The position numbers were made by a program, and so were the translations under genes. Shown piece by piece: positions 898-7,829 of a stretch of 18,456 nucleotides of DNA (within the stretch, counting starts at the first letter, position 1; every line of letters begins with the position of its first letter). The notes below the pieces were generated by a model, which made no database searches, was not told the origin of the DNA, and worked only from the letters and a program-made list of their open reading frames with translations. Source of the DNA: an uncultured Candidatus Actinomarina sp. (GTDB taxonomy: Bacteria > Actinomycetota > Acidimicrobiia > Actinomarinales > Actinomarinaceae); the NCBI GenBank assembly GCA_902634185.1, contig CACPJC010000008.1, forward strand, positions 1 to 18,456. The letters are read 5' to 3'.

Positions 898-3800
898 ATG
901 TTCAAAAGAATTGAAAATAATATAGATTTTGCTGAAAATGAAGATAAGATATCGAATTATTGGAATGATATTGATGCTTTTCAAAAATCACTAGATATAA
1001 GAAAAGAATCTAAAATATTTAGATTTTATGATGGTCCCCCATTTCCAACAGGAAGTCCACATTATGGAAACTTACTTGCAGGCGTAATTAAGGATATTGT
1101 TCCTAGATATTGGACTATGAGAGGATACTTTGTAGAAAGAAGATTTGGTTGGGATGTCCACGGATTACCAATTGAAATGGAAGTACAAAAAGAACTTGGA
1201 TTAGAAGACCCTCAAGATATTGATGATTATGGTATTGATAAATTTAATGAGGCTTGTAGAAGTCAGGTACAAACGAATACAGAAAACTGGGAAAAAATTA
1301 CTCGTAAAATTGGAAGATGGGTCGATTTTGAAAATGATTATAAAACTATGGATGTTGGTTTTATGGAGAGTGTCTGGTGGGTTTTCAAAGAATTATTTGA
1401 TAAAAATTTAATTTATAAAGATTATAAAGTATTACCTTATTCTTGGGCAGCATCAACTCCTTTGTCAAATTTTGAAGCAAACATGGACTATCGGGATGTA
1501 GAAGATCCGTCAATATATTTTAAGCTAAAAGCAAGAAAAGACTTCAATAAGGTGTCGAAAGATGATTACTTTCTAGTTTGGACAACTACTCCATGGTGTA
1601 TACCTGGCAACTTAGCTATTGCTGTTGGTAAAGATATTGAATATTCAAGAGTTGAGATTGAAAATGAATTTTACTGGATCGCAACAGAGAGACTACATGA
1701 ACTTGATGAATTTGACATTAAAGAGATAGAAACTTCAATTGGAAAAGATTTAATTGGTGCAGAATATGTACCTGCTTATTCAGAATTTGAAGATGAAAAT
1801 TTAGGGAAAGCATTTAAATTAATTCATAGTGATGAAACAAATACTGCATCTGGGTCAGGATTAGTATCTCAAGCTCCTGCTTATGGAGAAAGTGATTTTT
1901 ACTCACTCAAAAATGCTGGTATTTCTGTAATTGTTGATCCAGTAACGTTAGCTGGAAAGTTTGATACAACCGTAAAAGGTTTAGAAGATATGTATGTTAA
2001 AGATGCTGATGTAAAAATAATTGAACAATTAGACGAACGTGGATTACTTTTTTCTTCAAAAAGAGAAATACATTCCTATCCTTTCTGTTGGAGAACTGGA
2101 ACACCACTTATATATAAGGCGATACCAACCTGGTTTGTGAATGTTGAAAAAATTAGTGAAAGAATGGTTGAACTAAATTCTCAAACTCATTGGGTTCCTG
2201 GTTTTATAGGTGAAAAACGCTTTTCAAATTGGTTGGCCGATGCAAGAGATTGGGCAATAAGCAGAAATAGATATTGGGGAAGCTGTATACCTATTTGGAT
2301 AAATGATGATGACCCTGAAGATATAATTTGTGTCGGCTCAATTGAAGAGCTTAAAGATTTATCTGGTGTTGAAGTAACTGATCTTCATAAACATTTTTTA
2401 GATGAAATCAAGATAAACATCAACGGTAAAACATATACCAGAACTCCCGAAGTTCTTGATTGCTGGTTTGAATCAGGCTCAATGCCTTACGGTCAACAAC
2501 ATTACCCATTTGAAAATGCTGATGAATTTATGGATGGTTTCCCAGCAGATTTCATAGCAGAAGGTTTAGACCAAACAAGAGGATGGTTTTATACATTAAC
2601 TGTTTTGGCAGTTGCATTATTTGATTCTGTCGCTTTCAAGAATTGCATTACAACTGGAATGATTCTTGCAGAGGATGGTAGAAAAATGAGTAAAAGCCTT
2701 AAAAACTATCCTGACCCTGAAGACTTACTTAACAAGTATGGTGGTGATAGCCTAAGAGCTTATTTAATCAACTCTCCAGTTGTTAGGGGTGAGCCTCTTA
2801 AATTTTCAGAAGAAGGGGTAAAACTTGTTACAAGAAACGTAATACTACCCCTTTGGAATAGTTTTTCTTTCTTTTCAAATTATGCCAACGCTGACAACAT
2901 TACGAATGAAGAATTAGCAAAGGCTTCACCTGTAAACGAAAGATCTCTCATGGATCAGTGGATTGTATCAAGTCTTCAATCTTTAATAAAGACAGTAAAC
3001 GATAAAATGGAAAACTATTACCTTTATGAGGTTATTCCTCCATTAATTGACTTTATTGATGAATTAACTAATTGGTATGTTCGAACTAACCGTAAAAGAT
3101 TTTGGAAAGAAAAAGATACTAATGATATTGATAAATTAAACGCATTCAAGACACTTCACGAGGTTCTACTTGAATTTTCAAAAACAATGGCGCCTGTGTT
3201 GCCATTTATATGTGAAGAGATATATCAGGGTTTAACGAATGAGGACAATAAAAGTATTCATTTAGAAAATTATCCAGAAGCAAATATAGATGTAATTAAC
3301 CAAGAACTTGAGAGGCAAGTTAAGATAGCTAAAAACATTATCAGAACTGCTAGAAATGTTCGATTGAATTTGAATTTACCAAATAAACAACCTTTACAGA
3401 AAATATCAATTATTTCAAATAGCAAATCTATTAAAAATGATATTGAAGCAGTTAAAAACATAATACTTGACGAACTAAACATAAAAGATATTGAGTACAT
3501 CAATAAGGTTGAAGAATGGTACAAGTATGAATGTAAACCAGACTTCTCAAAATTAGGCCCAAAGATGGGTAAAGGTATTGGAAAATTTTCGACTTACTTG
3601 GAAAAACTTTCACAAAAAGAAATTAAAACCTTAATTGAAAAACAAACTTTGATATTTGAAGAATATGAAGTCTCTTTATCAGAACTAGATTTAAGAATTG
3701 TGCGTGAAAATACATCAGATAGTCATGAAATTGTCAATGATTATAGTATTAATTTAGATACTGAAATCAATGATGAGTTATATTTTGAAAGGATATCGAG

Positions 3801-4041
3801 AGAAATTGTTTCTGTTGTTCAAAATCAAAGGAAAGAACTAGGATTCGACATTACAGATAGAATTAAATTAGAAATAATCTCAGATGATAACAAAGCTCTT
3901 CAGGGTGTTGAAATGTTCCAAGATTACATTTGTAAAGAAACTTTAACCAAAGAATTTAATATTACTCAAAAAAAAGGTAAAAACACACTTCTTGATTTTA
4001 ACTTAGACACGAATATTAAAAAATTAACAAACAAATCTTAA
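898..4041 (+). CDS. ileS: Isoleucine--tRNA ligase, type 2 (IleRS2, eukaryote/archaea-like)
   Basis: 1047 aa. FYDGPPFPTGSPHYGN (HIGH motif, 1060-1071), GWDVHGLP, WTTTPW editing motif, DWAISRNRYWG, EGLDQTRGWF, KMSKS (2683-2697). Long C-terminal extension (REIVSVVQNQRKELGFDITDRI) with no C-terminal Zn finger indicates type 2. Confidence 0.98.
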   Translation: MFKRIENNIDFAENEDKISNYWNDIDAFQKSLDIRKESKIFRFYDGPPFPTGSPHYGNLLAGVIKDIVPRYWTMRGYFVERRFGWDVHGLPIEMEVQKELGLEDPQDIDDYGIDKFNEACRSQVQTNTENWEKITRKIGRWVDFENDYKTMDVGFMESVWWVFKELFDKNLIYKDYKVLPYSWAASTPLSNFEANMDYRDVEDPSIYFKLKARKDFNKVSKDDYFLVWTTTPWCIPGNLAIAVGKDIEYSRVEIENEFYWIATERLHELDEFDIKEIETSIGKDLIGAEYVPAYSEFEDENLGKAFKLIHSDETNTASGSGLVSQAPAYGESDFYSLKNAGISVIVDPVTLAGKFDTTVKGLEDMYVKDADVKIIEQLDERGLLFSSKREIHSYPFCWRTGTPLIYKAIPTWFVNVEKISERMVELNSQTHWVPGFIGEKRFSNWLADARDWAISRNRYWGSCIPIWINDDDPEDIICVGSIEELKDLSGVEVTDLHKHFLDEIKININGKTYTRTPEVLDCWFESGSMPYGQQHYPFENADEFMDGFPADFIAEGLDQTRGWFYTLTVLAVALFDSVAFKNCITTGMILAEDGRKMSKSLKNYPDPEDLLNKYGGDSLRAYLINSPVVRGEPLKFSEEGVKLVTRNVILPLWNSFSFFSNYANADNITNEELAKASPVNERSLMDQWIVSSLQSLIKTVNDKMENYYLYEVIPPLIDFIDELTNWYVRTNRKRFWKEKDTNDIDKLNAFKTLHEVLLEFSKTMAPVLPFICEEIYQGLTNEDNKSIHLENYPEANIDVINQELERQVKIAKNIIRTARNVRLNLNLPNKQPLQKISIISNSKSIKNDIEAVKNIILDELNIKDIEYINKVEEWYKYECKPDFSKLGPKMGKGIGKFSTYLEKLSQKEIKTLIEKQTLIFEEYEVSLSELDLRIVRENTSDSHEIVNDYSINLDTEINDELYFERISREIVSVVQNQRKELGFDITDRIKLEIISDDNKALQGVEMFQDYICKETLTKEFNITQKKGKNTLLDFNLDTNIKKLTNKS

Positions 4042-4290
4042 GATAATTGGTTGTAAAAAGTTTATACCTAATATCAAAACGATTGGTGATAAATCAATAC
4101 CTGCCATTCCAATCCTCAATGGACCAATTCTAGATCTTATTGGCTCAAGAAGCCTTCCATAGAATCTGTCTAATATCATTTTCACCTGACCGATTGGATG
4201 ATCATTAGAAACTTGAATCCAACTTAGAATTATCCATAAAAACAAGGAGTAGCTTAACAATCTGAAACCGAGTAAAAATAAGCTACACAT
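4024..4290 (-). CDS. yggT: YggT/YlmG (SepG) family membrane protein
   Basis: 88 aa, two hydrophobic segments, IILSW...LLEPIR..I...GIDLSPIV motif; directly downstream of sepF. Confidence 0.92.
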   Translation of the reverse strand: MCSLFLLGFRLLSYSLFLWIILSWIQVSNDHPIGQVKMILDRFYGRLLEPIRSRIGPLRIGMAGIDLSPIVLILGINFLQPIILRFVC

Positions 4291-4720
4291 TTATTTTGTA
4301 TAAGCCAAGAGATTGTAATCTCTCTCTTTCACTTGACGGTAGTGACATGTTTGAAGGAATTATCAAATAAACTCCATCCTTATGAATTATTCGCATTTTT
4401 GCATCACTTATAAATGCAATACCAGTTATAAAATCCACAATTCTTTGTCTAATGTTTTGATCAGTAATATCTCTGATATCTACAGCAACAATAAACCCTT
4501 CTTTAATCGGCGATCCAATAAGATGACTGTCGCTAAAAGACCTTAGTACTTTAATTTCAACCTCATCTTTTGGTTGATGAATCTTTAAATCTCCCGTATA
4601 GTCTTCATTCGAGAACCTATTTTCAGACGAAGGTCTTACAGTACGAGTGTTTTCAGGAATAACTTCTTCAACATATTCTGGTTGTTTAAGACCAATTGAA
4701 ATTAAGAATTTTTCTAACAT
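4283..4720 (-). CDS. sepF: Cell division protein SepF (FtsZ membrane anchor)
   Basis: N-terminal amphipathic helix MLEKFLISIGL, linker, core SFSD...IG..IKEG..V.VD...RIVDFITG; canonical position after yggS/ylmE. Confidence 0.88.
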   Translation of the reverse strand: MLEKFLISIGLKQPEYVEEVIPENTRTVRPSSENRFSNEDYTGDLKIHQPKDEVEIKVLRSFSDSHLIGSPIKEGFIVAVDIRDITDQNIRQRIVDFITGIAFISDAKMRIIHKDGVYLIIPSNMSLPSSERERLQSLGLYKINV

Positions 4721-5334: not shown

Positions 5335-5897
5335 ACAGTGCTCTCTTGTCTCAGTGAAGTTTTGTCTCTCCTGTATGAATGAAACATTTTATCTCCTATT
5401 GTGCACTCATTAGCTATTTCTAACTCAATATTGTTTTTTTTACAGAACAAAATTATGTCTCCACTTAAATTTAAAAATTTTTTTTCTTCTCTTTCAATAG
5501 TGTAATCTTGAAACTTTTGGCTCAAATCATCTTGAATTTCATAGCAACATGATTTTGCATGAGGTCCAATCGATACTTTCAACTTATCTTTATCAAAATC
5601 TTTGATTGCATTGTAAAATATTTTATTTTCTACACCTTTCCATCCAGCATGAATAATTCCTATTCTTTTATTGTCTGATATAACAACAGGCATGCAATCT
5701 GCTGTTGAAACAACTAGTAATAGATTCTTTTTTGTTGTAATTAAAGCATCAGCATCATAAACACCACTTCGTTCAATTTCTAAAACTACGTTGCTATGAG
5801 TTTGGTTCATTGAAGCAACTTCAGTAAAGCTGGCTATGTCTTTATTGCCTGATTTGTTATAAAAAGTTGCTTTAGATATTAATTTAGACTTAATCAT
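5325..5897 (-). CDS. pgeF: Peptidoglycan editing factor PgeF/YlmD (YfiH/DUF152 laccase-like purine nucleoside enzyme)
   Basis: QTHS, DALIT, TADCMPV, HAGWKG, IGP....CCYE, CT....FHSYRR motifs; immediately after ftsZ with ATGA overlap. Confidence 0.93.
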
Positions 5898-7039
5898 CCT
5901 CTGATGAAATCAGGGAGATTATCTCCTCCGTTTTCATCAAAGTCAGATGACACTCTTCTGTTTGGTCTTTGCCCAAATCCTGCTGCAACAACTGTTACTT
6001 CTACAGCATCACCTAAAGAATCGTCAACAAGATGTCCGAATATAATTTCTGCATTATCATCTGCTCTTTCGGTAATTACTCTTGCTGCTTCATTTACTTC
6101 TTGAAGTTTTAGATCCTCAGATCCAGCAATTGTTATAAGAACACCCTCAGCTCCGTCCATATTTGCTTCTAATAATGGTGAAGAAATAGCTGCTTGTGCG
6201 GCATTAGGAGCTCTTTGTTCTCCTGTAGACCTTCCAATTCCAAGTACGGCATTACCAGCATCTTTTAATATTGTTTTTACGTCAGCAAAGTCAACATTTA
6301 TTACTCCAGGGTTTGTTATTAAACCTGTAATACCTCTTACACCATTTGCAAGTATCTCATCAGATTTGAGATAAGCTTCACTTATTTTGATATCTTTATC
6401 ACTAATTTGTAAAAGTCGATCATTAGGAATAACAATTAATGTATCAACTACATCTCTAAGTGCTTGTATTCCTTCTTCAGCTTGAACTGATCTTCTTCTA
6501 CCTTCAAAGCCAAATGGTCTTGTAACAACACCTACAGTTAAAGCTCCCATCTCATGAGCTATGTTGGCTAATATAGGTGATGCACCTGTTCCAGTTCCAC
6601 CACCTTCACCTGCAGCGATGAATACCATGTCTGCGCCTTTTAAAGCTTCGTTAATAAGTTCTTCAGAATCTACTGCTGCTTGTCTTCCTACTTCTGGATT
6701 TGCACCAGCACCTAGACCTCTTGTTGATTTTCGACCGAGATCTAATTTTAAGTCGGCTTTTGAACCAAGTAAGCTTTGGGCGTCTGTATTACAAGCTACA
6801 AAATCAACACCTTTTATACCCATTTTTATCATTCTGTTAACAGCGTTGGTTCCACCGCCACCAACTCCAACAACTTTTATAACTGCTGCATAATTTCTAG
6901 GTCTCATATTTAAGTTAACTCCTTTTTGCTTAGAACTTCTTTTGACTGCAGTTTTTTTAGACTTAGTTTTAGCCACAGTCTTTTTTGCCTTGGGTTTAGT
7001 TGCCCTAGCTTTAGATTTTGTTTGTTTTTTTGTTGCCAT
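5894..7039 (-). CDS. ftsZ: Cell division protein FtsZ with N-terminal Lys-rich extension
   Basis: [27 protein letters not shown] tubulin signature, [16 protein letters not shown]7 loop, C-terminal peptide LPDFIR. AAGGA lies 6 nt before ATG 7039; alternative ATG at 6907. Confidence 0.99.
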
Positions 7040-7130
7040 AATTTTTCCTTACATTGTAGATTATCAATAATTTAAGTATATCCAAAACTTTTTTTTAATT
7101 TTATCTAGATGTAAAGTATAGATATAGATT
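7040..7130 (-). promoter_or_regulatory. Probable internal ftsZ promoter and ribosome-binding site in the ftsQ-ftsZ gap
   Basis: The only sizeable gap (91 bp) in a ~14 kb run of abutting genes. Minus strand has -10-like TATACT and GATAAT hexamers and SD AAGGA (7050-7046). ftsQ-ftsZ promoters are well known in actinobacteria. Confidence 0.5.
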
Positions 7131-7829
7131 TTAGCAGCTAAGTATAGTTTCAATATTTTCACTGTTTGAGTCGATGACGGTCACTTCTCCATCGCAATTG
7201 CCCTCTTCTAGTATGTATCCGACAACGGATCCTTTTTTTGAAAGGTCAACTGGCCGACCAATATTTAGTGTGGTATTTTTGTACGATCCAGTAAGCTCAA
7301 TTCCATCATATAGTATCTTTAAATCTTGGATAGATATTTCGTACTTGTTTACTGTTAAGATTAGAGAAATTATTTCACTATAAAATCCTTCTGGTACAGG
7401 TCCATTTGTAATTGTTAAACGTGGCAATCTGTTATTTGATTCTGCGAGTTCGGTATATAAATTTTTATATAAGATGACTTCTTTTGGGTTCGTATCTCTT
7501 AGATCGCTTATTACGATAATTTTTTCATGAATAACAATATCTATAAATATAAGATTCGGTAGTTGTTTGCTTATTACTAAGCTTTCAACACTTAAATTGT
7601 CTTCATAAAATTGACCAAAATCAGATTCATCAATGAACCAAATTGATTTACCTTGAACGATGCCAAAAGAGCTGTAATTTAAGTCAATATTTTTTTCATA
7701 ATTAATATCGGTAACTGTATATTTTGAGGAAAACATTGATAAAAATGTAATGAAAGTTAAAAGAGAAAAAAACGAAAATATTGAGAAAGTCTTAAATGTT
7801 CTTTGTTCTAAATTTAGTAACTCATTCAT
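7131..7829 (-). CDS. ftsQ: Cell division protein FtsQ/DivIB (divergent)
   Basis: Single N-terminal TM helix, then POTRA-like segment ending VESLVISKQLPNLIFIDIVIHE; lies between murB and ftsZ. Confidence 0.8.
   Translation of the reverse strand: MNELLNLEQRTFKTFSIFSFFSLLTFITFLSMFSSKYTVTDINYEKNIDLNYSSFGIVQGKSIWFIDESDFGQFYEDNLSVESLVISKQLPNLIFIDIVIHEKIIVISDLRDTNPKEVILYKNLYTELAESNNRLPRLTITNGPVPEGFYSEIISLILTVNKYEISIQDLKILYDGIELTGSYKNTTLNIGRPVDLSKKGSVVGYILEEGNCDGEVTVIDSNSENIETILSC

Follow-up and report, generated by a model that had tools for sequence, protein, structure and literature searches.

Why does the cell-division protein FtsZ of an uncultured Candidatus Actinomarina species begin with 44 residues that are rich in lysine and free of acidic side chains? 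FtsZ is among the best-studied bacterial proteins and is normally acidic, and its variable N-terminal peptide is its least studied part. The ftsZ gene in question lies on the minus strand of an 18,456-base stretch of DNA (the window), which is an entire contig (C8), one of the 16 that make up a 974-kb genome with ~30% G+C and a completeness of 83%; more distant protein matches carry Acidimicrobiia names, in keeping with an Actinomarina source. An earlier reading of the letters (the original prediction) described the N-terminal tail as histone-H1-like and suggested that it might couple placement of the Z-ring to the chromosome in a tiny cell. Comparison with related genomes indicates that the tail truly belongs to FtsZ: it is in frame, conserved and under selection, and is neither idle DNA nor a mis-called start. 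As for its function, our tentative reading, to which we assign a probability of about 0.4, is that by analogy with other lysine-rich tails it may be an electrostatic arm that contacts polyanions, DNA most probably, and would then act as a nucleic-acid tether.

The features of the gene, all on the minus strand, are as follows.

5894-7039, minus strand: ftsZ, 381 codons plus stop (list of open reading frames, translation, Pfam)
6908-7039, minus strand: N-terminal tail, residues 1-44, net charge +17 (translation, in frame with the core)
7037-7050, minus strand: Shine-Dalgarno (SD)-like AAGGA (7050-7046), 6-nt spacer and start ATG (7039-7037) (sequence)
6905-6924, minus strand: internal ATG at codon 45 (6907-6905) with an SD-like AAGGAG (6924-6919) 11 nt upstream, a possible second start (sequence)
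6890-6925, minus strand: junction conserved across the order, residues 39-50 (51 of 51 loci)
6932-7015, minus strand: ~28 codons (roughly residues 9-36) unique to the long-tail clade (long versus short leaders; borders inexact owing to low complexity)
5897-5977, minus strand: C-terminal region after the core, 27 residues, ending in the conserved LPDFIRG (tabulated loci)

The FtsZ core and its N-terminal tail

Translation of the minus strand across 6908-7039 bears out the composition that had been predicted: the 44-residue tail is in frame with the core and contains 15 Lys, 2 Arg and no acidic residue. In the Pfam search, residues 54-213 match the Tubulin/FtsZ GTPase domain (PF00091, E = 5.7e-47) and residues 262-355 match FtsZ_C (PF12327, E = 3.4e-31), so residues 1-44 stand ahead of the FtsZ fold. 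This protein is the single FtsZ match in the whole genome. Its GGGTGTG signature (G146 G147 G148 T149 G150 T151 G152) is invariant among 57 aligned sequences, and an AlphaFold2 model built on that alignment shows a normal FtsZ core (pTM 0.70, mean pLDDT 71) preceded by a segment, residues 1-48, with pLDDT below 50 and no secondary structure. The tail is thus predicted to be disordered.

Start site and translation

We read the 5' region of ftsZ at 51 loci, 50 from the genus and 1 from a sister genus, out of 62 genomes searched; in the remaining genomes the ftsZ match was absent or partial. Each of the 51 loci has retained an in-frame ATG upstream, with a basic leader after it that ends in (K/R/T)-G-V-(N/S/T)-L-N and continues into (M/T)-(R/K)-P-(R/K)-N-Y. 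At 50 of the 51 loci this ATG is preceded, at a distance of 4-17 nt, by an SD-like 4-mer; the exception is the sister genus. The original prediction had noted a well-spaced AAGGA before the ATG, and it is indeed there, at 7050-7046 with a 6-nt spacer; what that account of the start site overlooked is the AAGGAG that lies 11 nt before the internal ATG. Motifs of this kind recur among the relatives: AGGA or GGAG precedes codon 45 at 46 of 51 loci, and codon 45 is itself an ATG at 49.

It might accordingly be proposed that FtsZ starts at the internal ATG (6907-6905) and that 6908-7039 is an untranslated 5' leader. The internal AAGGAG and its counterparts in the relatives speak for such a reading. 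There is also a weak match to a promoter across the upstream ATG, but a scan of 6850-7250 for promoters and terminators gave three promoter-like matches against 1.2 +/- 1.0 in shuffled sequence, which is not informative and so provides no evidence. The proposal runs into difficulty at codon 45, which encodes Thr in G014 (its FtsZ shares 97% identity with that of the window), in the sister genus, and in the metagenome proteins P0021, P0049-52 and P0054-56. In these sequences any alternative start would disrupt the first beta-strand or the G-box, leaving none that is usable. Upstream of the internal ATG, the nucleotides behave as coding sequence: length differences among leaders and tails are all in frame, the ratio of non-synonymous to synonymous substitution (dN/dS) in the tail is 0.18-0.27, third codon positions vary in excess, and the upstream ATG with its SD-like motif is kept at 50 of 51 loci. 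The codons of the GVNLN junction vary synonymously (Val: GTT 17, GTC 14, GTG 9, GTA 11; Leu: TTA 37, CTA 6, TTG 5, CTT 3), which argues that selection at the junction acts on amino acids and not merely on an SD-like RNA element. Seawater metatranscriptome contigs (X4, 6806-7156; X8, 6894-7351) bridge ftsQ, tail and core; this counts for little, since such contigs show neither transcript ends, strand nor translation, and RNA libraries can contain DNA. Bins without coverage in X1 and X3 likewise carry no meaning. We regard an untranslated leader as highly improbable, and the comparative evidence indicates that FtsZ is translated from the ATG at 7039, tail included.

Distribution, origin and selection

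The relatives carry the basic leader in two forms. At 37 of the 51 loci it is short (13-17 residues, net charge +3 to +6); at the other 14 it is long: G010 has 46 residues, G071 has 52, and the remaining 12 loci, of which one lies on a partial contig, have 44. One locus (G045) has an extra ATG five codons further upstream, which is probably not the start. To place the long form on a phylogeny, we used a maximum-likelihood tree of core DNA from which the tail was excluded (50 rows, partial L064 omitted; a quick search with SH-aLRT support only). The 13 long-tail rows form one clade (SH-aLRT 99), which requires one change on the tree, and thus the long tail was gained once, in one sub-clade of the genus.

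The start of the G071 tail (L040 2619-2661) suggests how the gain may have occurred: within its 52 residues there is a perfect 12-nt tandem repeat of 3.6 copies encoding (KKTT)n, which has the look of a fresh slippage expansion. With this repeat as a guide, we conclude that the short leader probably grew by ~28 residues through slippage in A-rich codons. Tandem Repeats Finder found no repeat in 6850-7100 of the window, so the origin of the tail studied here is no longer visible. Another conceivable origin is the copying of a module from some other protein. A tail-only search (residues 1-44 against 5.8 billion proteins, protein length range 209-667 aa), in which 8 of 28 candidates passed, returned solely FtsZ of the same clade; this rules out the copied module and indicates that the tail is home-grown, not borrowed.

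Once gained, the tail has remained under constraint. In the two main long-tail groups dN/dS is 0.27 and 0.18 for the tail, whereas the core, at a similar dS, has values of 0.03 and 0.008, and the variable columns at codon positions 1/2/3 number 5/5/9 and 8/6/19. Lysine positions are fixed, and replacements occur among A/V/S/T/P/G/N and between K and R. No stop or frameshift was found in any of the 14 long tails, 12 of which are exactly 44 residues long in spite of indels that distinguish the two main groups and offset one another. The alignment of relatives that the original prediction had called for therefore comes out in its favour: frame and lysine bias are both kept, and with frame, SD and lysines conserved the 132 bases are not idle, as it had argued. 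Its proposal of coupling as a trait of the tiny cell fares less well, having overlooked the short basic leader. Because that leader is found across the order and the long form in only 14 of 51 species, the long tail is a modulating add-on and not a necessity of a tiny cell.

Outside the order, we examined 80 fetched ftsZ loci of other Actinomycetota, a Streptomyces-heavy sample in which 4 loci lacked the anchor motif. The remaining 76 start with (V/M)AAPQNYL or MTPPHNYL, which align with M45-RPRNY here, in agreement with the prediction that actinobacterial FtsZ normally begins at the M45 site. None of the 76 carries a Lys-rich tail, so that the tail is as unusual for actinobacterial FtsZ as had been thought; the survey took the most upstream ATG, GTG or TTG of the open frame, a procedure that overstates extensions in high-GC DNA. 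G035, another member of the class but with high GC content, has at L024 an open frame ahead of ftsZ that might specify a leader rich in Arg, Ser and Thr (MPRTQRSRSRTT...), from a putative start.

Charge, composition and motifs

Across all 1881 open reading frames of 60 aa or more in the genome (974 kb), the FtsZ tail ranks first for 30-residue windows that are rich in Lys and Arg and poor in acidic residues, and just two of these frames, FtsZ and GyrA, carry H1-like tails. With two such tails among 1881 frames, general drift of the proteome does not account for the FtsZ tail. When the tails of the 14 long-tail species are pooled (612 residues), they contain 207 K, 71 A, 71 T, 67 S and 1 D. The effect on the protein is substantial: long tails have a net charge of +16 to +19 and the FtsZ core one of -12 to -13, so that whole long-tail FtsZ has a net charge of +3 to +6 and an isoelectric point (pI) of 8.8-9.2, versus -5 to -13 and 4.7-5.4 for whole short-leader FtsZ. 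Overall, the tail lifts the net charge of FtsZ from about -9 to about +4. The mean core charge is -12.8 in long-tail species versus -12.4 in short-leader species; since it is equal in both groups, co-evolution of core charge with the tail is ruled out.

No known motif or family was detected in this segment. An amphipathic helix was not found (maximum 18-residue hydrophobic moment 0.31, mean hydrophobicity -0.62), and residues 2-44 include one large hydrophobic residue. The AT-hook core R-G-R-P and SPKK motifs are absent from the 44 residues as read from the sequence, which contain no GRP. In an ESM Atlas feature search with residues 1-50, the top match was an archaeal cluster with a score of 0.76, below lead level. 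Pfam on the tail alone, with E values admitted up to 10, gave DUF6465 as its best match (E = 6.8) and no match to the HC2 (PF07382) or H1 profiles. The description of the tail as histone-H1-like thus holds for composition and fails for homology, as the tail-only search, with its returns limited to same-clade FtsZ, also indicates.

A possible electrostatic arm for nucleic acid

How might such a tail work in a dividing cell? The answer that we favour begins with a short basic leader, MATK...K-GVNLN, present across the order, which in one sub-clade was lengthened once by ~28 residues and has since stayed between 44 and 52 residues long, its lysines retaining their positions. The result is a disordered tail of +17 ahead of an ordinary acidic core (net -13). 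At the other end of the protein, the C-terminus would be tied to the membrane via SepF through a very short linker. The region after the core spans 27-30 residues at 50 of 50 tabulated loci (49 from the genus plus the sister genus), and the C-terminal FtsZ linker of model bacteria is much longer than such a region would leave. The terminal peptide is LPDFI(R/K/Q)G in 49 of 49 tabulated genus proteins and LPGFIQG in the sister genus, and AlphaFold2 predicts a short helix at residues 377-380. The gene for the anchor lies in the window:

4283-4720, minus strand: sepF, with an amphipathic N-terminus and an acidic linker (Pfam PF04472, translation)

SepF is the sole known FtsZ membrane anchor found in the genome. 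FtsA, SepH (DUF3071) and Lsr2 were not found in this genome, 83% complete, in which the one FtsA-family match, a candidate for FtsA, proved to be MreB; a search of 61 genus genomes, of which 11 have a completeness of 90% or more, found DivIVA/Wag31 (PF05103) in none.

FtsZ attached by its N-terminal end deforms membranes in the opposite sense to FtsZ attached by its C-terminal end (PMC9111741, citing Osawa et al.), which places the two termini on opposite faces of the curved filament; with the C-terminus at the membrane, the tails of the Z-ring should therefore point into the cell. There they would meet a high concentration of polyanion. For a cell volume of ~0.013 cubic micrometres (PMC3747508) and ~1.1 Mb of DNA, our own arithmetic gives ~0.3 M DNA phosphate, and at this concentration tails of +17 are expected to reside mostly on chromosome or RNA. 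The tails would thereby hold the inner face of the ring to the nucleoid and, as a side effect, repulsion between the acidic filaments would be screened.

The choice of DNA as the target is inferred by analogy, from the tail that GyrA, an enzyme of DNA, carries in the same genome and from the lysine repeats of TopA, which in Streptomyces stabilise the enzyme-DNA complex (PMC5714199). GyrA (G000 contig C2:145975-148500, locus L065, protein P0122) begins with a Lys/Ala/Thr tail of ~40 residues made up of AAKKT/AAKKP units (MAAKKTAAKKTAAKKPAAKK...), which gives a weak match, below cut-off, to the Pfam HC2 'histone H1-like' profile (E = 1e-4). A GyrA match is present in 57 of 61 genus genomes, and because most of these matches start within query residues 1-14, the GyrA tail looks genus-wide.

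A more specific proposal is that FtsZ itself couples the Z-ring to the chromosome: a +17 tail on each subunit, displayed on the inner face, would bind DNA directly, so that assembly, position or constriction of the ring senses the nucleoid without an adaptor of the Noc, SlmA or Min type. We consider this proposal doubtful, with a real but minor chance of being correct.

Several observations weigh against a nucleic-acid arm. The closest experimental precedent, the positively charged disordered N-extension of mycobacterial FtsK, binds no DNA in electrophoretic mobility shift assays (PMC13277299). The tail has no DNA-binding family match, AT-hook or SPKK motif. The 37 of 51 species with a leader of just 13-17 residues imply that the long tail is dispensable for the lineage, and the relatives compared here are all kin, so that counts across them are not independent. 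In addition, a tail-less isoform could be made from the internal start, given the SD-like AGGA or GGAG at 46 and the ATG at 49 of 51 loci.

Comparison with known terminal extensions

It is instructive to compare the tail with extensions described in other proteins. FtsZ N-peptides range from a few to ~200 residues, and such starts are often missed by annotation (PMC6175996). The N-peptide of Anabaena PCC 7120 FtsZ (residues 2-51) is, like the tail here, a lineage-specific extension of ~50 residues before the core, and its deletion alters polymerisation and bundling and impairs interaction with SepF in two-hybrid assays (PMC6175996). The two differ in that they have no sequence relation, as judged from a tail-only search that found the clade alone and not from a pairwise comparison, and in charge: the passages searched in the Anabaena paper do not use 'basic' or 'positively charged', whereas the tail here is of low complexity and +17. 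In the FtsZ1 of Odinarchaeota and the FtsZ of Mycoplasma, an N-terminal extension adds a binding function (PMC12583498), but these extensions are amphipathic helices and the tail here has no hydrophobic face or predicted helix.

At the opposite end of FtsZ, the C-terminal variable (CTV) region of the Bacillus subtilis protein promotes lateral association of filaments by charge. Like the tail here, the CTV, a concept set out in PMC4835091, is a short, basic and disordered FtsZ end; it comprises ~6 residues beyond the C-terminal partner-binding peptide, in contrast to 44 at the N-terminus.

In composition the closest counterparts belong to the same phylum: the C-terminal domain of actinobacterial TopA (PMC5714199), HupS/HupB and the H1-like domain of DdbA (PMC3643593) are likewise rich in Lys/Ala/Thr/Pro, poor in acidic residues and disordered. 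The proteins that carry these domains have DNA as their substrate, unlike FtsZ, a GTPase of the cytoskeleton, and with H1/HC2 profiles the FtsZ tail gives no score and the GyrA tail only the weak one noted above. The mycobacterial FtsK N-extension shares more of the context, being a lineage-specific, basic and disordered N-extension of an actinobacterial divisome protein; it tunes division and is not essential (PMC13277299). It differs in position: it adjoins a transmembrane domain and bound cardiolipin and phosphatidic acid, while the FtsZ tail belongs to a soluble filament, on the side that points away from the membrane.

Alternative functions of the tail

Polycations promote lateral association of FtsZ in vitro, which brings to mind a built-in bundling agent, in our estimate an unlikely function that nevertheless deserves serious attention. 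The +17 tail would bind the acidic core or the acidic C-terminal stretch of neighbouring subunits or filaments and would stand in for cross-linkers of the Zap type (no search was made for ZapA or other Zap proteins). A tail charge of +16 to +19 roughly cancels the core charge of -13, a match that would be more telling if the core had changed along with the tail, which it did not (-12.8 versus -12.4). Cations and the CTV stabilise lateral association of FtsZ filaments (PMC4835091), deletion of the N-peptide changes polymer bundling in Anabaena (PMC6175996), and the failure to find DivIVA in any of the 61 genus genomes, or SepH and FtsA in the 83%-complete genome, would leave room for such a role; in the cell, however, nucleic-acid phosphate should far exceed the acidic groups of FtsZ and would compete for the tail. 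Contact with anionic lipids is somewhat less probable again. Here the polybasic tail would bind phosphatidylglycerol, cardiolipin or phosphatidic acid and provide a second, SepF-independent hold on the membrane, as N-terminal extensions do in tethering OdinFtsZ1 and some Mycoplasma FtsZs (PMC12583498), and the mycobacterial FtsK extension does bind cardiolipin and phosphatidic acid and not DNA (PMC13277299). The geometry is awkward, the N-terminus and the membrane-tethered C-terminus being on opposite faces of the filament (PMC9111741), although the 27-residue C-terminal region would keep the filament so near the membrane that a flexible 44-residue tail could reach it. The tail also lacks what a membrane-binding helix would show: its moment is 0.31, residues 2-44 include one large hydrophobic residue, and the model contains no helix.

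The tail could also have no specific partner at all. Slippage would have lengthened the leader, and selection would remove just acidic residues, hydrophobic residues and stops. The perfect 12-nt repeat in G071, a rate of non-synonymous change in the tail that is ~10-20 times that of the core, and confinement to one sub-clade with no homologue outside it all fit such a tolerated low-complexity expansion. It sits poorly with the retention of the tail in 14 of 14 clade species, 12 of them at exactly 44 residues despite offsetting indels, with dN/dS well below 1 and fixed lysine positions, and with the rarity of such tails, two among 1881 open reading frames. It also sits poorly with the economy of these genomes, for which the published description of the Actinomarina group gives ~1.1 Mb, ~32.5% GC and a median intergenic spacer of ~2 bp (PMC7771536). 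We give this expansion the same low weight as lipid contact. The remainder of the odds goes to other partners, such as the acidic linker of SepF or polyphosphate.

Novelty and significance

Variable FtsZ N-peptides are already known; a selected polycationic N-tail is a variant for which no description was found. We found none of a polycationic, H1-like FtsZ N-tail, or of FtsZ from this group, in the literature searched, most subscription journals lying outside it, and the order's main genome paper (PMC7771536) does not mention FtsZ, cell division or lysine. The protein is a natural FtsZ with a pI of ~9 owing to a selected polycationic tail, for which tail-less close relatives serve as built-in controls; long-tail and short-leader orthologues thus form a clean natural experiment. 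Surface oceans hold large numbers of this group (a single cluster at 90% identity has 1125 member sequences), its division toolkit is stripped down, and the long-tail sub-lineage, itself abundant, belongs to the smallest known free-living cells. If the tail does bind DNA, it would constitute a direct link between ring and nucleoid; if it bundles filaments or binds lipid, a minimal divisome would have swapped accessory proteins for a few dozen codons.

Gene neighbourhood and other proteins

The ftsZ gene belongs to a minus-strand cluster of dcw type with the order murC, murB, a 232-aa open reading frame, ftsZ, a Cu-oxidase_4 gene, a YggS-like gene, sepF and yggT; ileS lies on the opposite strand, convergent with the cluster. 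The 232-aa frame occupies the ftsQ position (7131-7829, minus strand) and has an N-terminal hydrophobic segment, with no Pfam match at E <= 0.001. In other actinobacteria divIVA follows yggT; here ileS (898-4041) converges directly on yggT (4024-4290) without an intervening gene. As for other proteins of the genome, its HU is a bare 90-residue protein, and FtsK (789 aa; G000 C5:14170-16539, locus L066) contains, near residue 250, a segment rich in Lys, Ser and Pro and almost devoid of acidic residues, which lies after the membrane domain and before the motor.

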